Shown one piece after another: positions 10,207 through 62,396 of a stretch of DNA of 64,000 nucleotides. Source of the stretch: an uncultured Candidatus Saccharibacteria bacterium. Lineage in GTDB: Bacteria > Patescibacteriota > Minisyncoccia > Phycocordibacterales > UBA5272. Location of the stretch: contig CAYJED010000005.1 of assembly GCA_964369115.1 (NCBI GenBank), forward strand, positions 2,237 to 66,236, written 5' to 3'. The notes under the pieces are model-generated. The model saw only the letters and a program-made list of their open reading frames with translations, had not been told where the DNA came from and did no database searches. The translations under genes were made by a program, and so were the position numbers. Position 1 is the first letter of the stretch. Each line of letters starts with the position of its first letter.

Positions 10207-10229
10207 ATTTTTTAAACTTATAGTTATAT

Positions 10230-11027
10230 ATGGAGTCACTTACTTATAAAAAACATATCTGGATTGCGGGAACAGTTGCTCTTGTGTGTATTTCATTTGC
10301 TTCACTTGCATTTGGAATTCAAAATCTCGACAGCATCAAACATCCAAATGGACAGGTTGCTACGATTTCTGTTTCAGGGGAAGGGGAAGTTACTGCAGTT
10401 CCTGACATAGCAACAGTAAGCTTTACTGTTCGTGAATCTGCAAAAACTGTTCCTGAGGCACAGAAACTCGTTGAAGCAAAAATTGCTAAAGGTCTTAAAG
10501 AGCTTGAGGTTATTGGTGTAGAAAAGAAAGACGTGAAGACTCTCTCTTATAATGTTAGTCCTAAGTATGAAACTCAGGGCGGATATTGTGCTCCAGGTGC
10601 ATACGCATGTCCTCCAATGAAGACAGTTATTAATGGCTACGAAGTAAGTCAGTCTGTTTCAGTAAAAGTACGTAAAGTTGATCAAGCAGGAGAAGTGCTT
10701 GGTATGCTCGGAAAAGCTGAAATTACAGAAATTTCTGGTCCTGATTTCACTGTAGATGATATGGATAATCTTAAAGCAAATGCTAAAGTGATTGCTATTA
10801 AGAAGGCTCAAGCAAAGGCGGAAGAAGAAGCTAAGGCGCTCGGAGTATCTCTTGGCTCAATTATTTCTTTCTCAGAAGATAATGGCGGATACTACCCTCC
10901 AATGATGTATGCATCAAAGGCTATAGGCGGAGTTGCGATGGCAGAATCAGCTCGTGATCAGGTGTCTCTTCCAGAAGGGGAGAATCTCATTAAGTCACGT
11001 GTGACTATTACGTATATCATTAAGTAA
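10230..11027 (+). CDS. SIMPL-domain (DUF541) protein
   Basis: N-terminal TM segment, then ISVSGEGEVTAVPDIATVSFTV... matching the SIMPL/DUF541 pattern (VxGxGxVxxxPDxA). Confidence 0.55.
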   Translation: MESLTYKKHIWIAGTVALVCISFASLAFGIQNLDSIKHPNGQVATISVSGEGEVTAVPDIATVSFTVRESAKTVPEAQKLVEAKIAKGLKELEVIGVEKKDVKTLSYNVSPKYETQGGYCAPGAYACPPMKTVINGYEVSQSVSVKVRKVDQAGEVLGMLGKAEITEISGPDFTVDDMDNLKANAKVIAIKKAQAKAEEEAKALGVSLGSIISFSEDNGGYYPPMMYASKAIGGVAMAESARDQVSLPEGENLIKSRVTITYIIK

Positions 11028-13712: not shown

Positions 13713-14321
13713 TTACTCCCTTACGTAATCAAGGAAGTTATAAATTGGGGACCATGCAGCGGGGTTGCTGTTTGGTGTTTTTTTGATCAAAACAAAACCC
13801 TGAGCTTCTGCTTCTTCTGTAAGAGGCTTATTAAGTCTTGCGTATTCATCACCTGGGCATTCTTTGTATACCAGAGTGATGTAGGCTTTTCCGGCAACGG
13901 TCATGCCAAATTTCCAACACTCACTCCCTCCAATAAAGATAAGCTTATCAACGATCGGAGAAGGAAGAAGGTTAAGGGTGTCAGCAAACGATCGCGCGAA
14001 GGTGATGCGGTCGTGTCTGGACAGACTTTCACTTTGTGCAAGAAATGCTTCTGGGTGATGTCTGGAAACACTGACAAGAAGTCGGTTTGGACCAAGATCA
14101 AGATCTTTCATTGTTTCTGCTGTAACTCTTCCTGCAACAAGAAGGTTTACTTTGCCCGGCTTGACCTCTTCTGTGACAGATTTGAAGCGCAACATGTCAC
14201 CAGGGAGTCCGGCTTTGCCTCTTTGCCAAGGCATGTCATCATCTAGGCCGTAGGCGCCATCTGAGGTGCATGCTCCAATGACTACAATTCGCGAACGATT
14301 AGCTGTGTTCATGGTACACAT
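13713..14321 (-). CDS. folA: Dihydrofolate-reductase-like protein (DHFR/RibD-C superfamily)
   Basis: IVVIGACTSDGAYGLDDDMPWQRGKAGLPGDMLRFKSVT...NLLVAGRVT...LIFIGGSECW follows the DHFR pattern (LPW..P.D...FK..T...GR.T...IGG). Adjacent to thyA. GC content is higher than the surrounding genome. Confidence 0.5.
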   Translation of the reverse strand: MCTMNTANRSRIVVIGACTSDGAYGLDDDMPWQRGKAGLPGDMLRFKSVTEEVKPGKVNLLVAGRVTAETMKDLDLGPNRLLVSVSRHHPEAFLAQSESLSRHDRITFARSFADTLNLLPSPIVDKLIFIGGSECWKFGMTVAGKAYITLVYKECPGDEYARLNKPLTEEAEAQGFVLIKKTPNSNPAAWSPIYNFLDYVRE

Positions 14322-14415: not shown

Positions 14416-15219
14416 CTATTTGGAAACTCTTCCTGTAATCGCCGGGTGGTGCTTGTACCCGATCAGTTCAAAGTCCTCGAACTCATAACCAAAGATGTCT
14501 TCTGGTTTGCGTTTCAGGTGCATTGTTGGGTAAGGGTACGGGTCCCGGGACAACTGCAACTTCACTTGCTCAAGGTGGTTGTTGTAAATATGACAATCAC
14601 CACCAGTCCAAATAAATTCACCAAGCTCAAGATCACATTGCTGTGCCATCATCATGGTGAGGAGAGCGTAGCTTGCGATGTTGAAGGGAACACCAAGGAA
14701 GGTGTCACAGCTGCGCTGATAGAGCTGACAGCTGAGCTTTCCTTCAGAAACATAGAACTGGAAGAGTGCGTGGCACGGCATAAGCGCCATCTTGTCGAGA
14801 TCTCCAACGTTCCACGCTGAAACAATGATGCGACGGGAGTCCGGATTTTGCTTCAGAGTTTTTACCACTTCAGCAATTTGGTCAATGTGCCTCCCGTCGG
14901 CAGTTGGCCACGATCGCCACTGCACACCGTAGACAGGACCAAGAGCACCGTCCTCAGCCGCCCATTCATCCCAAACGGTGCACCCACGCTCTTGTAGCCA
15001 GCGAGCATTGCCATCACCACGCAAGAACCACAGCAGTTCAAGGATGATGGACTTCAGGTGTACCTTCTTGGTGGTGACCAAAGGAAAACCTTCAGCAAGG
15101 TTGAAACGCATCTGGTAACCAAACACCGAAATGGTGCCAGTGCCCGTGCGATCGGTTTTCGGCACGCCGTCTTCAAGGACGTGCCGAGCGAATGTTTCGT
15201 ACTGAGAACTGTCGCTCAT
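14416..15219 (-). CDS. thyA: Thymidylate synthase (ThyA type)
   Basis: Near-canonical ThyA sequence: [42 protein letters not shown] (catalytic Cys), [20 protein letters not shown]. Confidence 0.9.
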
Positions 15220-43259: not shown

Positions 43260-43324
43260 CCCATCTCCACAAAATTAAAATACTCCACCTAAAAGGTGGA
43301 GTATTTTAATTTTGTGGAGATGGG
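43260..43324. repeat. Perfect 30-bp palindrome (inverted repeat with 5-nt loop) overlapping the 3' end of ssrA
   Basis: cccatctccacaaaattaaaatactccacc / taaaa / ggtggagtattttaattttgtggagatggg. Confidence 0.8.
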
Positions 43325-43705
43325 CGGGGTCGAACCGCCGTGTCACATGGTAGTGTATACACTTCTACGATATGTAGTTTGCTTTTTGTGTTCACAGAAG
43401 CAATAAAAAACAAACGAAAGCTACTTCTGTAGAGCATGCGATTATTTCAGATGAAATATGATGCAAGACCTCATCCTACATCTTCTGTCATATTGCTGAG
43501 TTCATTTCCGAAGATACGAAATGAGTCAACACCAGATCGGCCTTAAATTTAGGCGAATGCTGGAACTAGTCCTGCCATATATGGCGAAGGAATAGCCTTA
43601 CCAGTTGATTTTGCAACATGGTTACTCAAACGTTAACGAGTGCTTGAGTACTCTCGATATCGCGCCTACACACTATGCATATGATCGAAGCCAAAGTACA
43701 TCCCC
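43315..43705 (-). ncRNA. ssrA: tmRNA (SsrA)
   Basis: The minus strand 5' end GGGGAUGUACUUUGGCUUCGAUCA matches the tmRNA 5' consensus (GGGGcUGauUcUGGaUUCGAc). The 3' end carries a T-arm GGCGG-UUCGACC-CCGCC followed by CAUCUCC and discriminator A. The acceptor GGGGAUG/CAUCUCC pairs with a G3:U70 wobble. A candidate resume codon GCA sits near nt ~92. The gene is immediately downstream of smpB. Confidence 0.65.
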
Positions 43706-46606: not shown

Positions 46607-46679
46607 TGCGCCTACCTGGACTCGAACCAGGGACCAGTCGTGTATAAGACGACGGCTCTACCAACTGAGCTATAGGCGC
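46607..46679 (-). tRNA. tRNA with anticodon UAU (Ile; decodes AUA)
   Basis: The minus strand GCGCCTA-TA-GCTC-AGTTGGTA-GAGC-C-GTCGT-CTTATAC-ACGAC-TGGTC-CCTGG-TTCGAGT-CCAGG-TAGGCGC-A gives a perfect 7-bp acceptor, U8, a GG in the D-loop, a TTCGAGT T-loop, U33, anticodon T34A35T36, and A37. CCA is not encoded. Confidence 0.7.
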
Positions 46680-49174: not shown

Positions 49175-49576
49175 TTATCGAATAGAGCCTCTCTCTGGGC
49201 GGCTGTCGTATCTATCGGTTGGCCAAGTGTCTTCAACAACCTTCACCACTTCTTTATGATGTTTAAAAGCATTAAGTCTTTGTTCTATTTCTGTAAGTAA
49301 TTGGTTAGTTCTATCTAGGTTTTTTTGAGTTGAACCTTTTACTTTTTGTAGGGTGAATACTTTTGTAAAATCTCCAACCTTCTCTCCTTCCTCCATGTCT
49401 TTTGAAAGCGCTACAAGCATAGCCTCAAGAGACCTTTTCTCTTCTTCTTGTTTTCTTCTTTCTTCGATAAGATCTAGCTTACTCATTTTTTCGTAAGGAG
49501 AAGAAGTGTTTGGCAGTGTTTCAGGTGTTGTAAGAGGGGGTGTTTTTTCTAACATATGTAACGAAGTATATCGCAT
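49175..49576 (-). CDS. Hypothetical coiled-coil protein
   Basis: 133-aa ORF upstream of recG and rich in E/K heptads. No motif. Confidence 0.3.
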   Translation of the reverse strand: MRYTSLHMLEKTPPLTTPETLPNTSSPYEKMSKLDLIEERRKQEEEKRSLEAMLVALSKDMEEGEKVGDFTKVFTLQKVKGSTQKNLDRTNQLLTEIEQRLNAFKHHKEVVKVVEDTWPTDRYDSRPERGSIR

Positions 49577-49603
49577 TTTCAGTAAAGAAAAACACCCGCA
49601 AAA

Positions 49604-49957
49604 TTACTTGGGGTGTTCTTGGGGTTTTTGAACAAGGGTCGGAATTCCACCAGAAAGCGTATCGCCGGTTCGTGTTAGAAGGGTGAGCACCTCACACAAC
49701 ACTTCCTGACTATTGAGCAGTTCGCTGACCAGAAGAGATAGCTCAGCTTGTTTTTTTTCTGGAAGCATAGGAAGGATTTCCTCAATCCCTTGCCTCAGAG
49801 CTCTGATGCTCCCCAGTCCTTCGTTAAGGGTAACGTGTGCTTGTCCTGCTTGTTTCCAGACAGGATGCATACGCATTGCTTCGGGGAGAGGCGACGGTTC
49901 CATAAATACCTCTATAGTTAAAAGTGCTCTTAATGTAAACACTAACACTATTGACAA
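49604..49957 (-). CDS. Hypothetical protein
   Basis: 117-aa ORF with no recognisable motif. Confidence 0.25.
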   Translation of the reverse strand: MSIVLVFTLRALLTIEVFMEPSPLPEAMRMHPVWKQAGQAHVTLNEGLGSIRALRQGIEEILPMLPEKKQAELSLLVSELLNSQEVLCEVLTLLTRTGDTLSGGIPTLVQKPQEHPK

Positions 49958-49976: not shown

Positions 49977-50348
49977 TTATCTTATTTGTGGGCGGGCGTG
50001 GTATATGATGAGAGAAAGACTTACGAGAATAAGAATGAAAAGAAGCATGTTACTTCCCGTGTACGATTCCATTGAGAAGTTAATGTAGAGTTCTGTAGAA
50101 AGAATAATGAGCACAAATACAAGAGGGAGTACTGGTCGTGGCCAGATGAGTATCAAGATACCGAGAATGACAAAGAAGGAGTGCCATATAGTAAAAGTAA
50201 TAACTTCAGAAACCTGAATAGACTGATTAATACATTCAAAAAGGGCCATGTTGGCCTTTTTTGCTCCATTTAGAAGTGCTTGAGAGTGAGGATAGATGAA
50301 GTAGAGCGCTACCGCAAGACGAAGGAGAAATGGCCAAATGTTAAACAT
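49977..50348 (-). CDS. Small membrane protein (DoxX-like?)
   Basis: Four hydrophobic helices in 123 aa. The family assignment is tentative. Confidence 0.3.
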   Translation of the reverse strand: MFNIWPFLLRLAVALYFIYPHSQALLNGAKKANMALFECINQSIQVSEVITFTIWHSFFVILGILILIWPRPVLPLVFVLIILSTELYINFSMESYTGSNMLLFILILVSLSLIIYHARPQIR

Positions 50349-50424: not shown

Positions 50425-50472
50425 GTAAAAAGAGAAAAAATTGGGGGAGGCGACCTTCGGTCGCCTCCCCCA
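50425..50472 (-). terminator. Strong terminator downstream of the giant surface-protein gene
   Basis: 13-bp GC hairpin gggggaggcgacc-ttcg-gtcgcctccccc preceded on plus by an A-run, which is a U-run on minus. Confidence 0.6.
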
Positions 50473-50574
50473 ATAGACACACTAAAGATTTTCTGTACCA
50501 CAACAAGTACAAAAACATACGGAGTACCCAAAATTGGGCAGTCCGTATGTTTTGATACTTTTTATGTATGAAGG

Positions 50575-53500
50575 TTATCCTTCGTTACTTGTACTTACGT
50601 TAACTCGTTTTGTTTCTTTTGTTCCTGTTTGGCACGCTGCTGTAAATTCTGTTGTGTAACGAATTTGTCGTACTGTTTTCTTTCCAAGGGCTTTGTAGTC
50701 AGTAGGGTTATCTGTCGGACTGTGACCTGGAGCAAAATTACGAAGAGATGTGCGCAGATTTCTTTTTCCGTTCGGATCATTTCCGTCAGTTTCTTCTGCT
50801 GGACTGCTGAGGATATCATTGATTCCTTTCTCGTAGTCTTTTTGTTCTTGTGAACATGAATTATTTACACAGAGAACTTTTGCGCTAAGGGTACAAGTAT
50901 TATCGGGATACTGAATAGCCCACGTAAGTACTGTTTGACCTCCTTTTTCAATGGTTACAGGAGAAATGTTAAGTAATGCTTTTGGTGATTTTGGTACCAT
51001 ATCGAAATAAACTGACCATGGATCACTTTCGACATTTCCGTGCTTACAGATAATGGTATATGTCGCACTTGCATCAGGTGTAAAGTCTTGTGGCCCACTG
51101 TAGACAGTGTTATCTATTTCTAGTACACCGTTTTTTAGAATTTTCCATGCATTTGCACTAGAACAAATGAAGTTAATGTTTGGTGGAAATCCTGGGAATC
51201 CGTATTCTCCTGTTTTTACAACACCAGTAACTTCAGGGTCTACACATTTTCCTCCAACGCTGTCCCATTTTCCAGGTCCTGCAGTACAAGCAACTGATAC
51301 ATCTTCAGAATCAAGGGGTGGTTCGCCATTATTATAGAGGAATATTTTTACGGTAGATTTTGCAGCGGTGAGATTTATCGGCTGGTTAACTCCACTGTTA
51401 GCTGTATAGACGATGGTGCCATTTGGACTATTATGCGTAATTTGAGATGTTCCTATTGGATCTTGTGTAGACCATGTAGCACGCACCTGACAAGTGCTAT
51501 CTCCTGTTGCGATGCTGCATGACAGTGGTGCAACAGAAAGTGATCCCGTAGGTAGGGTACATGCAGGCTTAGTGACAGATCCGTTGTTACAGTTTCCACC
51601 TGCACATCCTCCATTACCACAAACTACACAACTACCAGCATCCATAACACGATCTGCTGGACAGATATCACATGTTGGTGGATTCGTAGCACCGTTAGCA
51701 CAGGATGGAGGGGTACATACAGGAGGGTTTGCTCCACCGTTATTACAACTTCCGTCTGTACATCCTCCATTTAGACACACTACACAACTACCAGCATCCA
51801 TAACACGATCTGCTGGACAGATATCACATGTTGGTGGATTCGTAGCACCGTTAGCACAAGCATTAGGCTCACAACTGTCTCCATCCCATGATGTACCATT
51901 TGCACAACTTGCTGTAGTGTTTGTTGTGTCAAGAATTGTTCCTCCAACAAGAACTCCAGCATTGTTTACACCTCCATACTGAACACGATAACACCCACCT
52001 GTGTAGCCACTAAACACAGAAGCACTTTGGTCTCCTGTAAGATATGAACCATAGATGCCATTACTACAGTCAGTGAGAATAACAGGGGTTATATTTGCAG
52101 AAGTCCATGTAAGAGTTGGATTACAAGAAGAATTACCAGAGGATACTGTACAAGAAAATGGTTCGTTAGTGAATGATGCTGTTGGTCCTGCATTAGGCGC
52201 GCAATTATCTCCATCCCACGATGTTCCGTTTGCACAGCTAGTTGTAATCACTTTAGTCGCAAGCTCTACGGTGTTGTTGTACAAATAGTAGGTGATTCCA
52301 CTTCCACTGTAAGGAACAGCTACACTGTAGTTATTTTCACTGTCGTCATTGATTTTAACATTAACATTTCCTGTTCTTGTTACAGAGCTTCCTCCAGCAT
52401 TTTGAGGGTAACTAACGCTCCATGATAGTGACACATTACAGGTGCTGTTTCCTGAACTGATAACACAAGAGTTAGCAGAAGAGGTGAGAGTTCCTGACAT
52501 AAGTCGACATCTGTTATCTGTGTGCACATGTCTTCCTGTGTTACATTGTCCAGTAACGTCAATAGTTTTAAGAGTTACCCCATTGTTTTTTAATGAATGT
52601 CTAGATGGTGAAAGGTAACCAAAAGCTGAAACGCTTTTTGTGTCCTCATGTTGTGGACTATAGATTACAGCACTGTCAGAATCTCGTACAATTTGTGTTG
52701 TTGCACTTTCTGGGTTTGTAACTTTCCAATACAAGGTGACAGCACAGTTGGTTGCGTCATCAGCAATGGTACACGTTGTACCACTAGGTGCTGTAAGAGT
52801 TCCAGTCATAGTGCCAGGACATGTAGGGTAGTTCGCATGTCCATTTTTACATGTTCCTGCACATTTCCATGCATTGTCTGCGCCAAATGCATCATAGTTT
52901 GTGTCAGTTGAAACATTACATCCCCATTTAGGAGCGGAACATGAAAGGCTTCCACATTTCCAATTCCAAGCAGCTGCTGTATCTGCTGCATCTGTGAATG
53001 TTCCACTAGAACACGCTACTCCTCCTGAAGGTTGTGCATCAGGATTTTGAATAGTTCCATTTCCTGTACCACATGAGTCAGCGGGTGCCGTTGTCGTAAA
53101 CGTCGCATCTGCTGAGAAGTAGTATGTTCCACCACTATCTCGTACAAATCCTCTGTAGTGGTATGTGGTATTTGCCAACATACTTCCACCGCGCGCATGA
53201 CTAAACACTCCTGTAGACACTCCTCCTGCATTAGTTGTTTCTGCCGAACAGTTAGTTAAAGGATCTACAACTGATCCCCAACAGGTACCACGTTCAGTTA
53301 TTGTTTTTGTTCCTGCTGATCTAAAGTTTGCTCCAAGTGTTGCTCCTGTTGAGGTGATGTTTGATGCAGTAGGGGTGTCGATGACGGGGTTTAAGGTACA
53401 TGCAGGCTTAATGGTAGAGCCGTTATTACAAACATGGTTTGTACATCCCGAACCTTGACAAGCTTCACAGGAGTCACCGTCCCATGCAGAGTTTGAAGCA

Positions 53501-56340
53501 CAGTCTGCTGTAACGTTAACTGTAGCAAGCTCTTTTGAATTGTTGTAAAGTCTGAAGATATGAGGTTTAGGGTATTGCGCACCTGGTATATCCAGTATAT
53601 AGCGAGCTTGAAGGGATTGACTGCCGTTATTGACAGAATTACTAGATGGCCCTCCGCCGTCACCTACAACTTGAGATACTCCACTTGTTGCATTTGTTGT
53701 TGTCCAAGTAAAGAGAGACCAACATGTGCTTGCTCCGTTTAATATAGTACAAGCTTCAGGAGAAGCTGAGAGAGTTCCTGACATGGCACTTGGTGCCGTT
53801 GTCGTAAACGTCGCATCTGCTGAGAAGTAGTATGTTCCACCACTATCTCGTACAAATCCTCTGTAGTGGTATGTGGTATTTGCCAACATACTTCCACCGC
53901 GCGCATGACTAAACACTCCTGTAGACACTCCTCCTGCATTAGTTGTTTCTGCCGAACAGTTAGTTAAAGGATCTACAACTGATCCCCAACAGGTACCACG
54001 TTCAGTTATTGTTTTTGTTCCTGCTGATCTAAAGTTTGCTCCAAGTGTTGCTCCTGTTGAGGTGATGTTTGATGCAGTAGGGGTGTCGATGACGGGGTTT
54101 AAGGTACATGCAGGCTTGATGGTAGAGCCGTTATTACAAACATGATTTGTACATCCTCCATTTTGACAAGCTTCACAGGAGTCACCGTCCCACACAGATC
54201 CTGAAGCACAGTCTGCGGTAACGTTAACTGTAGCAAGCTCTTTTGAATTGTTGTAAAGTCTGAAGGTGTGAGGGTTAGGGTATTGAGCGTTTGGTATATA
54301 GCGAGCTTGAAGGGATTGACTGCCGTTATTGACAGAATTACTAGATGGCCCTCCGCCGTCACCTACAACTTGAGATACTCCACTTGTTGCATTTGTTGTT
54401 GTCCAAGTAAAGAGAGACCAACATGTGCTTGCTCCGTTTAATATAGTACAAGCTTCAGGAGAAGCTGAGAGAGTTCCTGACATACCACCTGCCGCCGCTG
54501 TCGTAAACGTCGCATCTGCTGAGTAGTAGTATGTTCCACCACTGTCTCGTACAAACCCTCTATAGTGGTATGTGGTATTTGCCAACATACTTCCACGCGC
54601 ATGGCTAAATACTCCTGTTGCTGTACTTCCTTCTGCCACACAGTTACTTGAAGGATTTGCAAGTGATCCCCAACAGGTACCACGTTCAGTTATTGTTTTT
54701 GTTCCTGCTGATCTAAAGTTTGCTCCAAGTGTTGCTCCTGTTGAGGTGATGTTTGATGCAGTAGGGGTGTCGATGACGGGGTTTAAGGTACATGCAGGCT
54801 TGATGGTAGAGCCGTTATTACAAACATGATTTGTACATCCTCCATTTTGACAAGCTTCACAGGAGTCACCGTCCCACACAGATCCTGAAGCACAGTCTGC
54901 GGTAACGTTAACTGTAGCAAGCTCTTTTGAATTGTTGTAAAGTCTGAAGGTGTGAGGGTTAGGGTATTGAGCGTTTGGTATATAGCGAGCTTGAAGGGAT
55001 TGACTGCCGTTATTGACAGAATTACTAGATGGCCCTCCGCCGTCACCTACAACTTGAGATACTCCACTTGTTGCATTTGTTGTTGTCCAAGTAAAGAGAG
55101 ACCAACATGTGCTTGCTCCGTTTAATATAGTACAAGCTTCAGGAGAAGCTGAGAGAGTTCCTGACATACCACCTGCCGCCGCTGTCGTAAACGTCGCATC
55201 TGCTGAGTAGTAGTATGTTCCACCACTGTCTCGTACAAACCCTCTATAGTGGTATGTGGTATTTGCCAACATACTTCCACGCGCATGGCTAAATACTCCT
55301 GTTGCTGTACTTCCTTCTGCCACACAGTTACTTGAAGGATTTGCAAGTGATCCCCAACAGGTACCACGTTCAGTTATTGTTTTTGTTCCTGCTGATCTAA
55401 AGTTTGCTCCAAGTGTTGCTCCTGTTGAGGTGATGTTTGATGCAGTAGGGGTGTCGATGACGGGGTTTAAGGTACATGCAGGCTTAATGGTGGAGCCATT
55501 TGTACAACTCAGACTACCGTCAGGGTCACTGACACTTCCTCCTGTACCTGTACATCCGCTATTACCACATGCAACACACCCTGACCCTGCTGTAAAGTAT
55601 TTCCCGTCGAGACAGCGAGTTACTGTTTCTTGAATAGAAGAAGTCGCACTCTTTGTGCCATTTTTTACAACGTAGTCTGTATTTCTAACACACCCCACAT
55701 CTCCTTCTTGGGCATTTGTGTTGCTATTTCCTGATGCGCTTGTGAATGTCCCAAACACTTTCCATGCAGTATCAGTGTTCCATGAGTTGTTTGCACAAGA
55801 TCCGGTGAGTCTATATCTGTCTGAGTACGTTGCGCCATTTGTAGAGCTCCATGTTTTTGTATTTGCGGTTCCTGCTGGATAGCTGATGGTAGAGACGTTG
55901 GTACCATATGAGCCGGCGGTTATTTTAAGTGAGGCAGTTGGGTCTGCAGCGACACATGCACTACCGTTCCAAGAAGGCCTTCCTAGTGAAAGTGAACCAC
56001 CACAGTCTTCTACAGTAAGAGTATCCGATCCAGTTACTGAATCGCGTGTACACGTAAAACTAAAAGTATCAACTGTTTTAATACTAGCAAAAGTGGCACT
56101 ACCGTTTCCGGCTCGACGGCTTCCGTTCCACTGTACACCGTTTTGGTCTATAATATCATTTGGATTGCCGGTATACGTACTATTTGCATCACAGTCAGTT
56201 GCATTTAGAACAGACCAGTTGATGGTGGCATCTTTTCCTCTCTCTATCGTTTTAGCATAGGTGGTAGTTGTAGAAATAATGACTAAAAGTAAAGAAAAAA
56301 GAATACCGCGAATAATAAGTTTATAGCTATTGTATACCAT
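50575..56340 (-). CDS. Giant secreted/cell-surface protein (1921 aa), Cys/Thr/Ser/Gly/Asn-rich with internal tandem repeats
   Basis: N-terminal signal/anchor MVYNSYKLIIRGILFSLLLVIISTTTTYA. There are four ~228-aa repeats (NGSTIKPACTLNPVIDTPTASNITSTGATLGANFRSAGTKTITERGTCWGS...YHYRGFVRDSGGTYY...), a duplicated Cys-rich module (CANGATNPPTCDICPADRVMDAGSCVVC x2), and a conserved C-terminal ~130-aa domain shared with the 60711-62396 protein. Confidence 0.7.
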   Translation of the reverse strand: MVYNSYKLIIRGILFSLLLVIISTTTTYAKTIERGKDATINWSVLNATDCDANSTYTGNPNDIIDQNGVQWNGSRRAGNGSATFASIKTVDTFSFTCTRDSVTGSDTLTVEDCGGSLSLGRPSWNGSACVAADPTASLKITAGSYGTNVSTISYPAGTANTKTWSSTNGATYSDRYRLTGSCANNSWNTDTAWKVFGTFTSASGNSNTNAQEGDVGCVRNTDYVVKNGTKSATSSIQETVTRCLDGKYFTAGSGCVACGNSGCTGTGGSVSDPDGSLSCTNGSTIKPACTLNPVIDTPTASNITSTGATLGANFRSAGTKTITERGTCWGSLANPSSNCVAEGSTATGVFSHARGSMLANTTYHYRGFVRDSGGTYYYSADATFTTAAAGGMSGTLSASPEACTILNGASTCWSLFTWTTTNATSGVSQVVGDGGGPSSNSVNNGSQSLQARYIPNAQYPNPHTFRLYNNSKELATVNVTADCASGSVWDGDSCEACQNGGCTNHVCNNGSTIKPACTLNPVIDTPTASNITSTGATLGANFRSAGTKTITERGTCWGSLANPSSNCVAEGSTATGVFSHARGSMLANTTYHYRGFVRDSGGTYYYSADATFTTAAAGGMSGTLSASPEACTILNGASTCWSLFTWTTTNATSGVSQVVGDGGGPSSNSVNNGSQSLQARYIPNAQYPNPHTFRLYNNSKELATVNVTADCASGSVWDGDSCEACQNGGCTNHVCNNGSTIKPACTLNPVIDTPTASNITSTGATLGANFRSAGTKTITERGTCWGSVVDPLTNCSAETTNAGGVSTGVFSHARGGSMLANTTYHYRGFVRDSGGTYYFSADATFTTTAPSAMSGTLSASPEACTILNGASTCWSLFTWTTTNATSGVSQVVGDGGGPSSNSVNNGSQSLQARYILDIPGAQYPKPHIFRLYNNSKELATVNVTADCASNSAWDGDSCEACQGSGCTNHVCNNGSTIKPACTLNPVIDTPTASNITSTGATLGANFRSAGTKTITERGTCWGSVVDPLTNCSAETTNAGGVSTGVFSHARGGSMLANTTYHYRGFVRDSGGTYYFSADATFTTTAPADSCGTGNGTIQNPDAQPSGGVACSSGTFTDAADTAAAWNWKCGSLSCSAPKWGCNVSTDTNYDAFGADNAWKCAGTCKNGHANYPTCPGTMTGTLTAPSGTTCTIADDATNCAVTLYWKVTNPESATTQIVRDSDSAVIYSPQHEDTKSVSAFGYLSPSRHSLKNNGVTLKTIDVTGQCNTGRHVHTDNRCRLMSGTLTSSANSCVISSGNSTCNVSLSWSVSYPQNAGGSSVTRTGNVNVKINDDSENNYSVAVPYSGSGITYYLYNNTVELATKVITTSCANGTSWDGDNCAPNAGPTASFTNEPFSCTVSSGNSSCNPTLTWTSANITPVILTDCSNGIYGSYLTGDQSASVFSGYTGGCYRVQYGGVNNAGVLVGGTILDTTNTTASCANGTSWDGDSCEPNACANGATNPPTCDICPADRVMDAGSCVVCLNGGCTDGSCNNGGANPPVCTPPSCANGATNPPTCDICPADRVMDAGSCVVCGNGGCAGGNCNNGSVTKPACTLPTGSLSVAPLSCSIATGDSTCQVRATWSTQDPIGTSQITHNSPNGTIVYTANSGVNQPINLTAAKSTVKIFLYNNGEPPLDSEDVSVACTAGPGKWDSVGGKCVDPEVTGVVKTGEYGFPGFPPNINFICSSANAWKILKNGVLEIDNTVYSGPQDFTPDASATYTIICKHGNVESDPWSVYFDMVPKSPKALLNISPVTIEKGGQTVLTWAIQYPDNTCTLSAKVLCVNNSCSQEQKDYEKGINDILSSPAEETDGNDPNGKRNLRTSLRNFAPGHSPTDNPTDYKALGKKTVRQIRYTTEFTAACQTGTKETKRVNVSTSNEG
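52720..55494 (-). repeat. Four in-frame tandem repeats of ~684 nt inside the giant gene (two copies nucleotide-identical, two diverged)
   Basis: The ORF track shows identical translated sub-ORFs at a 684-nt offset (54099-54362 = 54783-55046, and 54438-54683 = 55122-55367). Diverged copies lie at 53391-53663 and 53739-53939. Confidence 0.8.
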
Positions 56341-56492
56341 ATATTTTAGTATATCTCCCTGTAACCTTCTTTACCTCTGGGCTATACACAGTAAAGAGAA
56401 TAAAAGAAGTAAATTAGTAGATTTGCGGCATGTGTTAGATTTAAGTTTTTCTTTATTGTATTTTTGGTATAGAATTAAGATAATAAAAGCAT

Positions 56493-56813
56493 ATGCGGAT
56501 TCATATTTTTAAATTAAAAAAAAATACTGAATTTCTTCTAAAGCAGTGGGGAGAAGAAGTTTCTTCTGATAGTAAAGAAGAAGCGATTCAAAGTCTTTTA
56601 GAAGAAAACTGCCTTGAAGAATCATTACGAATTTTTAAAATTAACAATGATATGTATCTTGTTGGTGTAATGGTAGCCTTAGATTCAAAAGGTCTTTTTG
56701 AACCAAATCAAAAAAGATCTATAAATAAAAAACACTTTTCTATTTTAAAAGAATGCATAGAAGAAGAAATTTCTCAAGATAAAATTTACAACGTTCGTGC
56801 AGATAAAAAATGA
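56493..56813 (+). CDS. Small protein upstream of the SagB-YcaO fusion (possible leader-peptide-binding/RRE-like accessory protein; hypothetical)
   Basis: 106-aa ORF whose stop overlaps the start of the downstream enzyme (ATGA), indicating translational coupling. No catalytic motif. The sequence is not Cys/Ser/Thr-rich, so it is not itself the precursor. Confidence 0.35.
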   Translation: MRIHIFKLKKNTEFLLKQWGEEVSSDSKEEAIQSLLEENCLEESLRIFKINNDMYLVGVMVALDSKGLFEPNQKRSINKKHFSILKECIEEEISQDKIYNVRADKK

Positions 56814-59041
56814 TAGAAAAAACTCCACTTAAAGAAAAAAAACCTATAATACATTCTTTTGGTAAATATGAGAGCGGTTTTTTTTCTTTTGTAAATTACT
56901 GGGGAGAGATCTCTTTTGAGGTAGATGAGATGATAGCAGAAAAAATAAACAGTATTTGCTTTAAATGTACCGGAACTAACTCTGTAGCAGAAATAATTAA
57001 ATCTTTTAACAAAGATGAAGAGGTGGAGTTGCTAGAGATCTTCGAGTTATTATTTGATAATAAGGTGATTTTTGATTCAAGAGAGTTTTATAAAATTTTT
57101 CATGAAGCATCAGAGTCTCCTTCTCGCTATACTTACAGTTTTTCTGACGATGAGATTAATTCTTTTAAAGCAAAATGCAGAAGTATAGTTCATCCAGAAG
57201 GGGAACTTATTTCTTTGAGAACTGTTTCAAATACTTTATTTACTGATCTTGTCTTAAATAGAAAATCTATTAGAAATTTTTCTGGAGCATCTATAACTGA
57301 TCAAGAGTTATCTGACCTTCTGATCTTATCATATTCAACAAATAGGCATAAGTCGACGCCGTCCGGTGGAGGGTTCTATCCTTTGCGTGTATATTTTTTG
57401 CTTCGTCTTAAAACTGAATCTTTAAGCCCGGGTCTGTATTTTTATAACCACGAAAAATCTTGTATCGTTAAAGTTTCAGAGCTTCCTCTTTTAAAAGATG
57501 AGTATTTTGAAGTTGTTTTAGGGGCACCTATGTATAACAGCAGTTCTGTAGTTATTTTTGTAGGATGTGATTTTAATTTAGTTACTAAAAAATATGCAAA
57601 TAGAGCATATAGGATGGCTCTTCTTGAAGCTGGTCATCTATGTCAAAATGTTTATCTATGCACTTCAAAAACTGAACTTGGTGTGGTTGAATACGGCGGG
57701 TGGAACGATGAAGTTCTCGAGTTTTTGCTAGATATAAAAGATAAAAATATTTTAATTCTTTCTACTTTATTTATCGGACATAAACAAGAAAATAGCTCTT
57801 CTGAGAACAAAACATTTGAAGATATTGAAGAAAAGCTAAGATCTAGTATTTGTCTTAAAGATTCTGGTATTGTTCGTTTTTTTGAGACGGAGTTATTTCA
57901 TTTTAATAATTACATTATGCCTGGATACGCCTCAGTTGCGAGATATGTTAGAGATAGAGATTTAGATAAAAGAAATCCAAAACTTTACTCAGCATTTGGT
58001 TTTGCTAAAACAATATCTGAATCAAGAGTTAAGGCTATTGCAGAAGCTTTCGAGAGATATGTCTCTGGCAGATATAGAGTCGATGAAATTGTTATACCAA
58101 ATAATGCTAAAGAAAAGTTTTTTAATATACTTGAAAATACACATCAAGATATTTTGTATATGAAAGAAAATAATTTATCAATTATTGACTATACAAAAAA
58201 ATGTTCTGTAGTATGGGCTTCGTACCTCCTTGATTCCAATAAAAATGATTATTGCTATGTTCCTGTCGATCATGTTTTTTATCCTATAAGTAAAAAAGAT
58301 GTTTTGCATGATATTTCTTTCCATTCTAATTCTACAGGGGTTGCAGCTCATACCCACTATGAAACAGCAGTTAAAAAAGCATTATTTGAATTAGTGGAAA
58401 GAGATGCTGTTGCGGTCATGTGGTTTTCTAAGATCTCACCAAAAAAAATAGATACCAAATCACTTCCTGAGGATCTTTTTCTTAGGGTTGAGGCTCTTCA
58501 AAAAATCGGCAGGGAGGTTGTTTTTTTTGACATAACAACAGACTCAGTTCCTGTTATTTTATGTTTATGTTATGGTGATTTTTTTCCTATGACAACCTCA
58601 GGGTGTTCTGCTCAAGAGGATCCTGTGGAGGCATGTAGAAAAGCTTTAGATGAAGCAGAATTTATTTTCAACTCCTGGAAAAGAGTTAAAAGAGAAAAGA
58701 AGGAATATTTTGAAGTTAAGTCAGCGACTGATCATGGTGATCTTTTTGCGTGGACAAACCTTAAAGAAGACCATAATTTAAAATGGCTTTTAGAAGGTCG
58801 TGTTATATCTATGCCTGCTGCCAAACAGGATGTTTATTCTAGTTTATTAAAAACACATAACCCCGTAGTTGTTCTCCTTTCCATGAAACATGAACCTCTT
58901 TTTGTTGTAAGAGTTTTGTCTAAAACATTGTATCCTTTTACTTTTGGATACGGTTCTGAGTTTTATGGACACCAAAGATTGAAGATGTTAGGATTAAAGT
59001 GGGGTCAGAATTACCCGTCTTTTCCCCATTTAATTGCATAA
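56810..59041 (+). CDS. Fused SagB-type (nitroreductase-fold, FMN-dependent) dehydrogenase / YcaO-domain cyclodehydratase, a TOMM/LAP-type azol(in)e-forming RiPP enzyme
   Basis: The N-terminal half has NRKSIRNF and TPSGGGFYPLRVY (SagB/McbC-type motifs RxSxRxF and PSAGxxYP). The C-terminal half has the YcaO motifs FGFAKTISESRVKAIAEAFERYVSG and SNSTGVAAHTHYETAVKKALFELVERDAV (ATP/Mg-binding ExxER...ERD). Confidence 0.7.
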   Translation: MIEKTPLKEKKPIIHSFGKYESGFFSFVNYWGEISFEVDEMIAEKINSICFKCTGTNSVAEIIKSFNKDEEVELLEIFELLFDNKVIFDSREFYKIFHEASESPSRYTYSFSDDEINSFKAKCRSIVHPEGELISLRTVSNTLFTDLVLNRKSIRNFSGASITDQELSDLLILSYSTNRHKSTPSGGGFYPLRVYFLLRLKTESLSPGLYFYNHEKSCIVKVSELPLLKDEYFEVVLGAPMYNSSSVVIFVGCDFNLVTKKYANRAYRMALLEAGHLCQNVYLCTSKTELGVVEYGGWNDEVLEFLLDIKDKNILILSTLFIGHKQENSSSENKTFEDIEEKLRSSICLKDSGIVRFFETELFHFNNYIMPGYASVARYVRDRDLDKRNPKLYSAFGFAKTISESRVKAIAEAFERYVSGRYRVDEIVIPNNAKEKFFNILENTHQDILYMKENNLSIIDYTKKCSVVWASYLLDSNKNDYCYVPVDHVFYPISKKDVLHDISFHSNSTGVAAHTHYETAVKKALFELVERDAVAVMWFSKISPKKIDTKSLPEDLFLRVEALQKIGREVVFFDITTDSVPVILCLCYGDFFPMTTSGCSAQEDPVEACRKALDEAEFIFNSWKRVKREKKEYFEVKSATDHGDLFAWTNLKEDHNLKWLLEGRVISMPAAKQDVYSSLLKTHNPVVVLLSMKHEPLFVVRVLSKTLYPFTFGYGSEFYGHQRLKMLGLKWGQNYPSFPHLIA

Positions 59042-59046
59042 AACAA

Positions 59047-59145
59047 ATGAGTACTTTAAAGCTTAAAGTTACATCAAAAAGTCACAAGCAAGTTGTAAGC
59101 TCAGCTAGTCTGTGCTTAACATCTACAAGTTCTTGTGACGATTAG
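59047..59145 (+). CDS. Candidate RiPP precursor peptide (32 aa) with Cys/Ser/Thr-rich core
   Basis: MSTLKLKVTSKSHKQVVSSASLCLTSTSSCDD. It starts 6 nt after the enzyme stop and is followed by an AT-rich hairpin (59166-59202). It is not in the ORF track because it is shorter than 60 aa. Confidence 0.45.
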   Translation: MSTLKLKVTSKSHKQVVSSASLCLTSTSSCDD

Positions 59146-59375
59146 TTTTTTGTTTTGATTTCATACTAAAAATACTTTATGTTTATCATAAAGTATTTTT
59201 AGTTATGTGTTTATTTTTTCTTAGTTTTAATTACTTTGAATTACGAAATACCAAAACTCCCCAAAACCAGTCTCACTTACAAAAGACCATCTACTTACAG
59301 AGCTGGTCTTCCTTAGCTTACTCTAAGTAGAGCTTTATGCACAGAAAAGATACACAGGGGAAATAAGACTATAGT

Positions 59376-59408
59376 ATAAAAAAAGACTGTGTATTTCTAC
59401 ACAGTCCT
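59376..59408 (-). terminator. Terminator downstream of the GC-rich lipoprotein gene
   Basis: gactgtgta-tttc-tacacagtc preceded on plus by an A-run. Confidence 0.4.
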
Positions 59409-59425
59409 TATGGAATAGTGAGGTG

Positions 59426-60472
59426 TTACCGATTGGTAAACACCATCACGAGCACAATCAGTTCGAATTTTTCGGCATTCCCGGTATAGAGCACAGACTC
59501 AACACCAGTAGTAGAAAGCATGCGAAGCACGTGACGGCTAAACCTGTCCACGTATACGTAGTCGCCATTTGTCGTTTGGGCTGAGGTGTACCATGTCGGC
59601 TTATCAGGAGGCACGCGAAGATATCCGTCCTGAAGCAGGACGTAGGTCACGCCAGCTGGTGCTTCTGGGAGATCCTTCAGTTCCATGGTCATCGGGTCAA
59701 GGAAAATGTCATTGTAGCGGATTTTCCCTTCACCGGTTGGGGCTGCACAGGAGTGTGGAATGGTGCCGTCAGGCTGTGGCTGCGTCGCGGGAGCGCAGCT
59801 CGCCACTGTAGCATATTTTGTCTTGTTCTTGGCCAACACCTTGGTACCATCAGGCATGATCTTCGCAGGGAATCCGTTGTCGGTCGGATTATACGTCAAG
59901 ATGAGGTCAGTGTAGACGATTTTTTCTTGAGCCTTCGTCGTGAACGTGAGCGTTGCACTCACGGCGGCAGAAGTCCCTCCCGGGCCACTGCCTTGCACGT
60001 TCGTGGTCGACACTTGGCAGACGGTCGAGAACGGCATGGTGCCGGTGATCGTCACTGCAAAACGTGCGGTCGAGTTGGCGGTGTCAAGCGTCATGATCGT
60101 CGTGCTTGCGACGTCCGCACCTCCGCAGGTGGTGCGGAAAGTACCCGTTGCCGAGTCCATCTGACCACCACCGTTACGGAAGTTGAGGTGTGCGGCGAAG
60201 TTCGTGACGTCCACACCGGTTGCACCGTTATCGGGTGCGGTCGATGCGAGCGTCAGGCTCGGAGGGGCGGGTGGCGGGTTCACGCAGACGCCATTCTGAA
60301 GCACCTGAGGTGCCACGCAAGTGGGCGGAGTGGTGGAGCCACCACCACCACCCCCGCCACCACAGGCGACCAAGCTGGCGATGAGGCCAAGCATCACCAC
60401 ACAGGTGATGACGAAGCGCGCGAAGCGCGCCTTCTCGTCTCCACCAAAGGTGAAGATTTTCATGTTGTTCAT
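59426..60472 (-). CDS. Lipoprotein of unknown function on a high-GC (~60%) island (probable horizontal acquisition)
   Basis: Start likely MNNMKIF, preceded by aaaGGAAGcaccATG. Signal peptide with lipobox LVAC followed by a GGGGGGGGSTTPP linker. The GC shift is abrupt at both ends (~59430 and ~60480). A terminator lies at 59376-59408. Confidence 0.5.
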   Translation of the reverse strand: MNNMKIFTFGGDEKARFARFVITCVVMLGLIASLVACGGGGGGGGSTTPPTCVAPQVLQNGVCVNPPPAPPSLTLASTAPDNGATGVDVTNFAAHLNFRNGGGQMDSATGTFRTTCGGADVASTTIMTLDTANSTARFAVTITGTMPFSTVCQVSTTNVQGSGPGGTSAAVSATLTFTTKAQEKIVYTDLILTYNPTDNGFPAKIMPDGTKVLAKNKTKYATVASCAPATQPQPDGTIPHSCAAPTGEGKIRYNDIFLDPMTMELKDLPEAPAGVTYVLLQDGYLRVPPDKPTWYTSAQTTNGDYVYVDRFSRHVLRMLSTTGVESVLYTGNAEKFELIVLVMVFTNR

Positions 60473-60710
60473 GGTGCTTCCTTTCTGCCCGAAGGCAAAG
60501 ACACACAAAAGGTTTTCAAACCTTCTGTTTGGCGTGTTCAAAAATACAAAGAAATGAGCCTTTTTCATATCTGCTTTAGTCTAGTATTGCATAGACTTCG
60601 GCAGGTATGATAAGTATCTCTCCACATATTACACTACACCTATTTTAAAAACTTGTCAAGTATCCGCAATGTTAACAATTTTTTGTGTACATACAAGCAG
60701 AGAACATTTT

Positions 60711-62396
60711 TTATAGTTCACTACTATCTTTTACCACCTGAACACGTCGTGTTTCTTTGGTGATCCCATCACAGGTAAGAGTAAATTCCATTGAATGTTC
60801 AACATTGAACGTCTTTTTCCCAAGTGCTCGCCATAGCGGTTCTTCATACCCTGGTGCAAAGTACTTAAGCGCATCTTGAATAGGGCGAGTAGTATTTGGA
60901 TCGTTTATATCAGTTGAACTTGAAGTTAAAATAGTATTTACATCGTCCTCAAAAGATGTCTGATCAGGTGTACAGATGTTATTAGTGCAAACTGCTTTTG
61001 CTGTTATTTGACAATCCTCGGTAGGATATTCAATGTCCCACGAAACAACAGTATCTTCATCTTTAGTAACACTTTTCGGATAGACACTTAGGGTTATGGT
61101 AGGTGGTGGTGGAGGTGGCAAATCATAGCGCACAGTGAAAGGCACAGGGTTTCTATATGATCCGTTTCGAGCATAAATGACGAAGTTTGCTGTCTGATTA
61201 ATTTCTACATTTGTGACACCAGAGTACGTACCTGTTGCTACAAGATTTCCTGATGGTAGAGGTGAGGTATAGATTTCATAAGCATCGGATCCTGTTAATT
61301 CAAACGTAATAACTCCTGGTGCTAAATACCAGTTACCTGATGAATATCCGTAACTTATTTGAGGGTTGACACACGTTGATGAGATGGTGTCCCATCCACC
61401 TGAAGAACATGAAGTAGTTACCGTAACTGGACCTGAAAGAAGTTGTCCTGCGTCATAGAGGTACATATCTGTAGCAGGAAATTCTCCAGTTAGAGTAAAA
61501 TTTTGTGCGGTACCAAAATATCCCGTAAACACAGTTGTGTTATCTGGATTATTACGGGTAACTGCTGGTGTGCCTATAGGGTAGCCTGTAGACCATGTGG
61601 CGCTGTACTGACAAGAGCTTTCTCCAACAGGGATAACACAGCTAAGTGGTGTAACATCAAGTGTACCAATTGCTGTACGTACCATAAATCCTTGCCAGAA
61701 ACTGCAGTTATTGTCTTCTGCTGTAGATGATGGCTTTTCAGTAATGAGACCAAGATCACCTGAAGATGATTTGTCTGCACAGGTTCGTACGCTATAAAAC
61801 CCATTTTCAGAAAAAAGGTGGGTGTAGGTGACGACCCTCGCGCCTGTTGCTGAAAGTGAGGCAGTGGACGTTGCTGGCATATCTGTAATCACAGCATCTT
61901 TTTCTATTTGAAAAAAAACATTAAAAGATGAGCCGGTTGTATCTGTGCCTATATTTCGTATAACACTTTCAAAAGTTGTCGGTATACCAGTACGAAGACT
62001 GCCAGAAAACTGATCATCTGTTGTAACGGAGTCTGCTGTGAGATCGGGGTCACGTGTTACGGTGATGGAAGCAAATAGAGGAAATGTAACATTACCTGAC
62101 TTATCTCCATTCTCATAACAAGTGAGACGGTATGTAACGGTGCCTGAATCTAGTTCGCTAAGATTTGTAAACGAAGAGGGAGGGATAAATTCTGCCCAAC
62201 TGTTTGTCCAATCACCTGTTGTTTCTTGTTTGTCGATAACACAGATACCGTACCCTGTATCATCTACGGTAACGTTATAGGTTTCTCCTAGTGTTACTGA
62301 TGATGTTGATGTAGTTATTCCTGCAAACGAAGTAGCACCGTTAGATAATAATAAAAACAGAGAAACTAAAACTATTTTTTTAGAAAAAGTATACAT
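60711..62396 (-). CDS. Secreted surface protein, paralogous to the giant protein (shared internal module and conserved C-terminal domain)
   Basis: Signal peptide MYTFSKKIVLVSLFLLLSNGATSFA. LDVTPLSCVIPVGESSCQYSATWSTGYPIGT is close to the giant protein's LSVAPLSCSIATGDSTCQVRATWSTQDPIGT. The C-terminal ~130 aa (VVSWDIEYPTEDCQITAKAVCTNNICTPDQ...FAPGYEEPLWRALGKKT...EFTLTCDGITKETRRVQV) align with the giant protein's C-terminus. Confidence 0.6.
   Translation of the reverse strand: MYTFSKKIVLVSLFLLLSNGATSFAGITTSTSSVTLGETYNVTVDDTGYGICVIDKQETTGDWTNSWAEFIPPSSFTNLSELDSGTVTYRLTCYENGDKSGNVTFPLFASITVTRDPDLTADSVTTDDQFSGSLRTGIPTTFESVIRNIGTDTTGSSFNVFFQIEKDAVITDMPATSTASLSATGARVVTYTHLFSENGFYSVRTCADKSSSGDLGLITEKPSSTAEDNNCSFWQGFMVRTAIGTLDVTPLSCVIPVGESSCQYSATWSTGYPIGTPAVTRNNPDNTTVFTGYFGTAQNFTLTGEFPATDMYLYDAGQLLSGPVTVTTSCSSGGWDTISSTCVNPQISYGYSSGNWYLAPGVITFELTGSDAYEIYTSPLPSGNLVATGTYSGVTNVEINQTANFVIYARNGSYRNPVPFTVRYDLPPPPPPTITLSVYPKSVTKDEDTVVSWDIEYPTEDCQITAKAVCTNNICTPDQTSFEDDVNTILTSSSTDINDPNTTRPIQDALKYFAPGYEEPLWRALGKKTFNVEHSMEFTLTCDGITKETRRVQVVKDSSEL

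Follow-up and report, generated by a model that had tools for sequence, protein, structure and literature searches.

How is a large secreted protein that bears none of the known wall anchors kept on the surface of its cell, and which of its parts may differ from strain to strain? This question is raised by a locus in a 64-kb (64,000-nucleotide) stretch of DNA from an uncultured Candidatus Saccharibacteria bacterium (contig CAYJED010000005.1 of GenBank assembly GCA_964369115.1), hereafter called the window. Beyond type IV pili and a few 'adhesins', little is known of how Saccharibacteria and other members of the Candidate Phyla Radiation (CPR) attach to and choose their hosts. In the window, the interval between secD and recG holds the gene of a 561-amino-acid (aa) protein, p561, which adjoins secD, followed by a GC-rich lipoprotein gene, an operon for a ribosomally synthesized and post-translationally modified peptide (RiPP) and a giant gene. 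The best explanation of our data is that this interval is a strain-variable cell-envelope locus built around a conserved pair, namely a lipoprotein with a Gly/Pro linker and a large, Sec-exported, disulfide-rich beta-sandwich protein. A variable surface locus with repeat-length variation is known and expected in CPR genomes; what is new here is a family of C-terminal domains (CTDs), shared by the giant protein and p561, and the unusual GC-rich, hypervariable partner gene. The variation has a polarity: the N-terminal end of the giant protein is hypervariable and its C-terminal end is frozen. We suggest that the conserved C-terminal unit would act as a cell-proximal docking module, that the repeats would set the reach of the protein and that the N-terminal domain would be its exposed, diversifying tip, and we give this reading a probability of about 0.45.

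All coordinates are those of the window, with strands as given, and the signal peptides and the lipobox were read from the sequence by eye, without a predictor. Every element that the initial annotation of this DNA had listed is present where it had been placed. From the recG side towards secD these features are found:

50440-50474, minus strand: strong intrinsic terminator 3' of the giant gene (16-bp stem with 11 GC pairs, then a T-run)
50575-56340, minus strand: giant gene, an open reading frame (ORF) of 1921 aa with 92 Cys, encoding a secreted multi-domain protein
56493-59145, plus strand: RiPP-type operon between the lipoprotein gene and the giant gene, GC 0.27-0.33
59382-59409, minus strand: terminator-like hairpin 3' of the lipoprotein gene
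59426-60568, minus strand: GC-rich lipoprotein gene, an ORF of 380 aa
60711-62396, minus strand: p561 gene, an ORF of 561 aa, the smaller paralog of the giant

The first step towards an answer is the anatomy of the giant protein. Read from the N-terminus, it consists of a signal peptide, an N-terminal domain of a type that is also found in other members of the CTD family, an immunoglobulin-like (Ig-like) domain with a Cys connector, 3.5 repeats, a Cys-rich 'WxW' module, three further Ig-like domains, two 52-aa Cys modules and a C-terminal unit of three modules. The parts that matter for the argument are, all on the minus strand:

56254-56340: predicted Sec signal peptide, aa 1-29, ...TTTYA/KT
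56002-56253: N-terminal domain, aa 30-113, of the 'TIxRGxxATINW...C' type, the hypervariable end
53086-55467: tandem array of three full units of 684, 684 and 708 nt (228, 228 and 236 aa) and a partial one of 306 nt
53980-55485: zone of perfect identity, with 822 nt identical at an offset of 684 (55485-54664 = 54801-53980), or 2.2 perfect copies
51547-51855: two 52-aa Cys-rich modules with a period of 156 nt (duplicated sequence at 51581-51858, the copies 92% identical)
50578-51546: C-terminal unit, made of an Ig-like module (aa 1599-1690, 51271-51546), a beta 'mid' module (aa 1691-1785, 50986-51270) and the CTD (aa 1786-1921, 50578-50985)

The repeat units begin at aa 292, 520, 748 and 984, and each full unit combines two domains, one FN3-like and one Ig-like, with a Cys-rich connector. 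Four repeats of ~228 aa had been counted initially; they are indeed tandem and in frame, and two of them (R1 and R2) are nucleotide-identical, but only three are full and the partial fourth holds the FN3-like domain only. The second duplicated Cys-rich module, of 156 nt, had been recognised correctly. Exact blocks of 326 and 190 nt join the other units of the array, a mosaic such as unequal exchange or gene conversion would produce if still under way. In an AlphaFold model of the 228-aa repeat (21 sequences; predicted local distance difference test score, pLDDT, 88.1), two beta-sandwich domains precede a Cys-rich linker that is disordered, and a Foldseek search with this model returned tandem FNIII pairs, such as those of Ihog (E 4.7e-6), RbmA, contactins, the Fn3-like modules of CbhA and SiiE. 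The repeat can thus be described, on the basis of this model, as two FN3-like domains at the level of the fold, which agrees with the early guess of an FN3/Ig-like protein. The likeness is one of fold only: fn3 (PF00041) has no match in the giant protein at E <= 0.1, and Pfam, NCBIfam and the sequences of the PDB gave nothing significant for either the giant protein or p561. The GC content of the giant gene (0.44) is raised because of the amino-acid composition of its product, with a GC content of 0.58 at second codon positions (GC2) and an ordinary 0.276 at third positions (GC3).

The giant protein and p561 have more in common than the last ~130 residues that had first been noticed. p561 starts with a signal peptide (aa 1-25, SFA/G), which is followed by an N-terminal domain, a CARDB-like domain (61668-62066) and a C-terminal unit (60714-61667) whose CTD (60714-61127, minus strand) ends in ...KDSSEL. 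The likeness to CARDB comes from a weak match of aa 117-211 to PF07705 (19.3 bits, E 0.0014, under the gathering score of 22.7) and from the homologous region of the family member P0003, which scores 65 bits (E 7.7e-18). By BLASTP, residues 1599-1915 of the giant protein align with residues 244-554 of p561 in one continuous alignment of 324 aa, with 37% identity (E 2e-53). Since the alignment is continuous, the common part comprises all three modules; a formal alignment therefore upholds the shared domain and extends it to 324 aa, and the two proteins are, judged by their sequences, true paralogs. Both carry N-terminal signal peptides and no C-terminal hydrophobic anchor. An LPXTG-type motif with a hydrophobic segment and a basic tail is absent from both hydrophilic C-termini (...RVNVSTSNEG in the giant protein, ...RVQVVKDSSEL in p561).

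The CTD is a real, uncatalogued domain family. Searched with a profile built from four CTDs, 1.84 billion cluster representatives (clusters at 50% identity) yielded 272 proteins at E <= 1e-3, 199 at E <= 1e-10 and 55 at E <= 1e-30; the CTD of the giant protein, which ends in ...STSNEG, matches the family profile with 165 bits. No Pfam family was hit consistently by 43 CTD sequences even at E <= 1, the same 43 had no sequence match in the PDB, and NCBIfam had none in the four proteins scanned (both window proteins and two family members), so that the proposal of a novel domain was borne out. A word-indexed protein search with the profile found only three short fragments, and pattern-based scans of genome and metagenome contigs found only one and three loci, respectively, because the CTD has few invariant stretches. 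Invariant or nearly so are four Cys and one Trp, together with a T-D...D...R stretch and the motif G-x-K-T.

The position of the domain is strict. In 146 of 149 representatives the CTD (~135 residues) ends at most three residues from the C-terminus, it is never duplicated in one protein, and a Glu stands at position -2 in 134 of the 149 (consensus ...R-V-x-V-T-x-S-x-E-[G/Q]-COOH). Its carriers are diverse, from ~90 to 2873 aa in length, the shortest being fragments. Three N-terminal types can be recognised in 39 of 113 full-length carriers and the other 74 fit none of them, the 'mid' domain stands directly before the CTD in 81 of 122 long members, and at least 12 members start with an apparent uncleaved transmembrane anchor (e.g., P0027 and P0028). 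The AlphaFold model of the CTD (pLDDT 94.6, predicted template modelling score 0.87) is an Ig-like sandwich with an inserted helix, for which Foldseek against PDB and BFVD gave only generic Ig-like, PKD and Big matches (E >= 0.01, template modelling score <= 0.52). Such an extreme C-terminal position would fit a shared anchoring or sorting role.

The next step is to ask what changes between strains, and here two strains are close enough to be instructive: the JGI strain (loci L002 and L009) and the JACCDT strain (L016). RecG and a 123-aa membrane protein encoded beside it are 100% identical between the JGI strain and the window, and nucleotide identity from 51858 to 46692 is 99.6%. In the same JGI strain, 12.1 kb of extra sequence (L002 from 11745 onwards and L009 to ~9690) lies between p561 and the lipoprotein gene, with four genes for FA hydroxylases and others for UbiA, an Lnt-like CN hydrolase and PAP2, as well as for a TPR protein and a membrane protein of the 'SELAF' kind; in the window, where this sequence is missing, the region 3' of p561 runs straight into the promoter region of the lipoprotein gene at a junction near 60654-60666. 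In several related loci a TPR protein and a membrane-anchored 'SELAF...GSVVPASC' protein are likewise encoded upstream. A second difference is a block without a blastn match in the JGI and JACCDT strains, with the same breakpoints in both:

55946-59930: lipoprotein gene from aa 213 onwards, the RiPP operon in full and aa 1-131 of the giant protein

In the JGI strain ~1.8 kb of other sequence stands in for this block. The third difference is one of repeat number, with four FN3-like units in the giant protein of the window, three in JGI and two in JACCDT, and with three 52-aa Cys modules in JGI versus two in the window. The JACCDT allele of the giant gene is an intact ORF of 1450 aa, 471 aa shorter than that of the window, which corresponds to roughly two repeat units. 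Compared module by module, the giant proteins of the window and of L016 show the following identities:

Signal peptide: 28%
N-terminal domain: 35%
C-terminal unit and CTD: 100%
All other modules: 91-100%

An independent close pair, L011 and L017, behaves in the same way, with flanks of 97-98% nucleotide identity, lipoproteins of 51-59% and N-terminal domains of 57% amino-acid identity. The region had been called variable in the initial annotation, and this holds: repeat number, N-terminal domain, the RiPP operon and a 12-kb indel all differ among strains whose RecG is 100% identical. Two further expectations were not supported. The paralogs had been said to bracket the island as a unit, and p561 hardly varies among strains (five variants, with 3-10 differences over its 561 aa); it also has no match to phage genomes by tblastn. 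The giant gene had been thought probably phase-variable, and we rejected phase variation through simple-sequence repeats since tracts of that kind (at least 8 A/T or 7 G/C, or di- and trinucleotide arrays) are absent from the gene and its 5' intergenic region (56341-56492); the homopolymer tracts of the region are confined to the RiPP genes and one A8 in p561. Diversity-generating retroelements were also considered, on account of a bAvd-like neighbour in relatives: the gene tables of the related loci list no reverse-transcriptase family, and no search aimed at a reverse transcriptase or template repeats was made in the window.

A mechanism that fits these observations can be outlined. The giant protein would be exported by Sec and would then dock non-covalently, through its conserved C-terminal unit, onto a conserved envelope component, for which a wall polymer, the co-encoded lipoprotein or membrane proteins are candidates. 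The FN3-like and Ig-like repeats would form a stalk, whose length may shift by whole units, in frame, when near-identical 684-nt copies recombine unequally. The exposed tip would be the hypervariable N-terminal domain, and tip and mature lipoprotein may be exchanged between strains as a single recombination block, into which the YcaO RiPP operon would have been inserted in the window strain. If so, the locus probably differs between near-identical strains as it shapes what the cell presents to its host, and the exposed tip could be relevant to host attachment or antigenic identity. The value of such close strains is that they separate a frozen part, the C-terminal unit, from the exchanged parts, the N-terminal domain and the lipoprotein. 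In this way a vague 'variable surface region' becomes a set of testable hypotheses on surface retention and host specificity.

Several points weigh against this mechanism. No structural analogue gives the CTD a binding function, as the Foldseek matches in PDB and BFVD are generic Ig-like folds. The anchor-like N-termini of at least 12 family members would put the CTD in a distal position and not a proximal one. The lipoprotein is linked to the big protein by adjacency alone, and given their co-variation it could be the N-terminus of the big protein, rather than the CTD, that contacts the lipoprotein. Finally, if the assemblies are short-read ones, the differences in repeat number could in part be collapse artefacts, and the JGI allele does have a 5-nt anomaly.

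Some of these points lead to the alternative that survives best, in which the CTD is a distal, conserved ligand-binding or adhesive head, the proteins are held by their N-termini (through a transmembrane anchor or by binding to the lipoprotein) and the repeats push the CTD towards the host. The signal-anchor-like segments are what such an arrangement would look like, N-terminal modules, 'SELAF' for one, are encoded in some places by cassette genes of their own and in others as part of CTD proteins, and the C-terminal half of the lipoprotein and the giant protein's N-terminal domain are swapped jointly in three strain comparisons, as one would expect of an interacting pair. Yet adjacency by itself can explain the co-swapping. 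A strict correlation between lipoprotein type and N-terminal type, which would have been a sign of interaction, was examined and set aside, as it is imperfect, with L008 as an exception among only seven loci. The signal peptides of the window proteins look cleavable (TYA/K and SFA/G) and not like anchors. Moreover, a surface fibril is usually best conserved at the end next to the cell, while exposed tips diversify, and here the CTD is 100% identical and the N-terminal domain 35%. We regard the distal head as possible, if rather unlikely, and keep to the proximal docking module as the preferred reading.

Another hypothesis is that the CTD is a secretion or sorting tag for a dedicated machinery, perhaps removed later, in the manner of the CTD of the type IX secretion system (T9SS) of Bacteroidota, the Por secretion tail. 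The likeness is real: both are beta-sandwiches at the extreme C-terminus, in one copy per protein, and both are borne by many unrelated multi-domain surface proteins with Sec signals, so that one domain sits on very heterogeneous cargo; the conserved terminal E-[G/Q] would also suit a tag. There are also differences. None of 43 CTDs matches the T9SS tail (Por_Secre_tail / TIGR04183) or any other Pfam family at E <= 1, and the four proteins scanned with NCBIfam show no sorting signal. The CTD described here has 135 aa, a helical insert and four conserved Cys, which suggest a stable folded extracellular domain and not a discarded tag, and the organism is a relative of the Saccharibacteria. These are taken to have no outer membrane to cross (to our knowledge, Saccharibacteria lack one), and Sec signals are already present. 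A hydrophobic tail and an LPXTG-type motif are lacking, the genes have no conserved neighbour that is a candidate for a sortase, peptidase or transporter, and no T9SS genes were seen in the window or in the related loci. A sorting tag is therefore quite improbable in our view, and retention by docking of the C-terminal unit remains the preferred explanation.

A different kind of doubt concerns the assemblies themselves, since mis-resolved repeats could explain the 684-nt copies and the differences in copy number, and a chimeric contig could explain the high-GC gene. It had been predicted that the repeats would be an assembly hazard, and this proved right. A Logan contig from an independent run, L001, ends at aa 293 of the giant protein, exactly where the repeats begin, and another JGI contig stops directly next to the gene of that protein. 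In the JGI strain itself (L009 ~14190, Ga0558718_03014), the giant gene is split into ORFs of 873 and 796 aa by a 5-nt GCTTG insertion where two repeat variants meet. Pseudogenisation of this allele was judged less likely than an assembly mis-join, because the insertion falls exactly at the junction of repeat types; the frameshift is probably such a mis-join. For these reasons the 684-nt copy number in these assemblies is not to be trusted until long reads confirm it. The repeat number (four, three or two) is credibly variable, as a figure that is assembly-derived in every assembly. Against a wholesale artefact, the reading frame is open across the entire array, an independent assembly has an intact two-unit allele whose other flanking modules are 96-100% identical, and L001 repeats the order p561-lipoprotein-YcaO-giant. 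A chimeric origin of the high-GC gene was rejected on the grounds that this gene order recurs in independent assemblies and that GC-rich homologs stand at the same position in six other assemblies. As a whole the artefact explanation is very unlikely, and it would cover at most the exact copy number.

The lipoprotein gene is the other half of the proposed pair, and its composition sets it apart. Its GC content is 0.558 overall and 0.60-0.67 locally, and its GC3 of 0.646 compares with 0.26-0.30 in its neighbours and with a mean of 0.294 in 41 long ORFs of the window (z = +5.9). An earlier description as a ~60% GC lipoprotein gene is right in kind, as the gene is GC-rich and a lipobox is present, but the figure is 56% and not 60%. 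The probable true start is Met33, at 60472, and the lipobox reads ...GLIASLVAC(69)GGGGGGGG (LVAC, with Cys as residue 69). It is followed by a Gly8 tract and a Pro-rich linker, then by a beta domain that is conserved and a C-terminal half that varies. An ACGGG lipobox context is found in every homolog with an intact N-terminus (P0013, L016, L008, L011, L017 and L013), and the leader region is conserved among the homologs. The JGI copy (L009) is frameshifted at the Gly tract.

The gene precedes the big CTD-protein gene in seven assemblies, the window and six others (L008, L011, L017, JGI with L002/L009, L016 and L013), and GC-rich versions are present also in relatives whose RecG is only ~70% identical. 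In the six other loci the lipoprotein gene has the following composition:

L009 (JGI), 10001-10933: GC 0.587, locus-wide 0.40
L016, 809-1942: GC 0.576, locus-wide 0.46 (a 6.6-kb fragment, mostly the two genes; strain genome ~0.40)
L008, 4380-5888: GC 0.594, locus-wide 0.46
L011, 2609-3649: GC 0.579, locus-wide 0.43
L017, 382-1425: GC 0.600, locus-wide 0.43; GC3 0.72
L013, 6573-7865: GC 0.491, locus-wide 0.39

Across the window and these loci its GC3 is 0.47-0.72, against ~0.3 in other genes, and it is the fastest-diverging gene of the locus. A search of 5.8 billion proteins found only four relatives, all from this lineage, and tblastn against phage genomes found none. Since GC-rich homologs precede the big gene in six other assemblies, the lipoprotein gene is best described, from its genomic context, as a conserved, hypervariable partner of the big gene. 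The label 'foreign', in the sense of a single import, was accordingly not confirmed. That the gene was acquired horizontally in one recent event and has no relation to the paralogs, as its GC3 with sharp boundaries at the coding sequence and the presence of a GC-rich thyA, a sign that imports do happen in this genome, might suggest, is hardly probable given the 'ACGGGGG' GC-rich lipoprotein genes directly upstream of a CTD-protein gene in the ~70%-RecG relatives, their conserved leader region and the lack of any homolog outside the lineage in the protein and phage searches.

The high GC3 may result from GC-biased gene conversion or from repeated import; both are possible. A bolder proposal would join all of these elements: the GC3-anomalous lipoprotein and the CTD fibril could be the two components of a surface system that has gone unrecognised in Saccharibacteria and related CPR bacteria, and in it the CTD would be a new retention signal for monoderm-like ultra-small bacteria, the lipoprotein/N-terminal block a host-range determinant, and the GC3 a trace either of intense recombination with GC-biased gene conversion or of genes imported repeatedly from actinobacterial hosts of high GC. 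In this full form we consider the proposal unlikely. The CTD family, the polarity of variation and the GC3 anomaly, on which it draws, are concrete and testable.

One other strong compositional outlier was seen in the window, the thymidylate synthase gene (14416-15219, minus strand) with a GC3 of 0.578. A DHFR-like gene (13713-14321, minus strand; GC3 0.40) adjoins it, and by composition this thyA-folA pair is likely to have been imported.

How does the locus compare with known systems? Among the closest are the fibrillar adhesins of monoderm bacteria (MSCRAMM, SiiE/RbmA-like stalks), which likewise have a signal peptide, a long tandem FN3/Ig-like stalk, a strain-variable number of repeats and a variable terminal domain. 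The proteins described here differ in that Pfam, NCBIfam and reading of the sequence show no LPXTG, SLH, LysM, choline-binding or other known anchor and no recognised adhesive domain, and in their disulfide-rich connectors and uncatalogued C-terminal unit. The CTD is comparable by analogy to the wall-anchoring modules of Gram-positive bacteria as well, but it does not have the features that define them. In Southlakia epibionticum, a cultured Saccharibacterium, envelope proteins with VCBS, dockerin and FN3 domains are essential for epibiotic growth (PMC10633639). By description only, these resemble the proteins of our locus as large extracytoplasmic beta-domain proteins of the same phylum-level lineage that are thought to mediate host contact, yet neither this CTD nor the lipoprotein partner is described there (PMC10633639). 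The MgPa operon of Mycoplasma genitalium offers a parallel in variation, as a surface protein of a small genome is varied by recombination, with conserved and hypervariable segments within one gene. Unlike in that system, no archived donor cassettes were seen in the window; here the variation is by allelic block exchange and by changes in tandem-repeat number. Against this background, the locus gives a searchable handle: a CTD family of 135 aa with ~270 clusters, a confident fold model and a conserved gene cassette.

The RiPP operon between the paralogs, which was confirmed by its YcaO-nitroreductase fusion, has three genes, all on the plus strand:

56493-56813: DUF6176 gene
56810-59041: YcaO-nitroreductase fusion, 743 aa (YcaO E 4.9e-32, nitroreductase E 4.2e-12)
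59047-59145: candidate precursor of 32 aa, MSTLKLKVTSKSHKQVVSSASLCLTSTSSCDD, with a Ser/Cys/Thr-rich end

With a predicted cyclodehydratase, a dehydrogenase and a candidate precursor, the operon has the make-up of a thiazole/oxazole-type (YcaO) RiPP locus. It is present in the window and in L001 and absent from JGI (L009) and JACCDT (L016). The CTD locus of L013 also adjoins a YcaO cluster, with a 73-aa ORF that ends in GGGGGCEGAGCCGSI.

The surroundings of the locus point to a CPR, Saccharibacteria-like organism. A match in the genome collection, L011, bears the label 'uncultured Candidatus Saccharibacteria bacterium' and shares synteny with the window (FtsH 91%, RecG 69-78% and the 123-aa protein 77% identical), and because of this flanking synteny we take the organism to be a relative of the Saccharibacteria, in line with the CPR assignment first made from the sequence. 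The 'SELAF'-type membrane protein of L011 (1205-2314) holds a Hint/intein-like domain (PF05203, E 3.6e-8).

On the recG side of the giant gene lies one more conserved neighbour:

49977-50348, minus strand: gene of the 123-aa membrane protein, with about four helices and no Pfam family

In five assemblies this gene stands directly downstream of the big CTD-protein gene and is followed by recG. Its product is better kept (77-100%) than RecG (69-100%), and it may be functionally tied to the locus. In three relatives a 116-aa four-helix protein of the 23S-rRNA-IVP / bAvd-like kind is encoded between the 123-aa gene and recG (L008 9449-9799, L011 6967-7317 and L017 4715-5077); the two small ORFs at this place in the window (49175-49957) are unrelated to it. 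A few kb off the recG side of the island there are a tmRNA gene (43312-43705, minus strand, 86.8 bits) and a tRNA gene (46607-46679, minus strand), with no integrase or mobile-element genes seen between them and the island. RecG itself has ~884 aa in L011 (7351-10005) and L017 (5081-7765) versus 719 aa in the window, owing to an insertion of ~150 aa in the middle of the protein.

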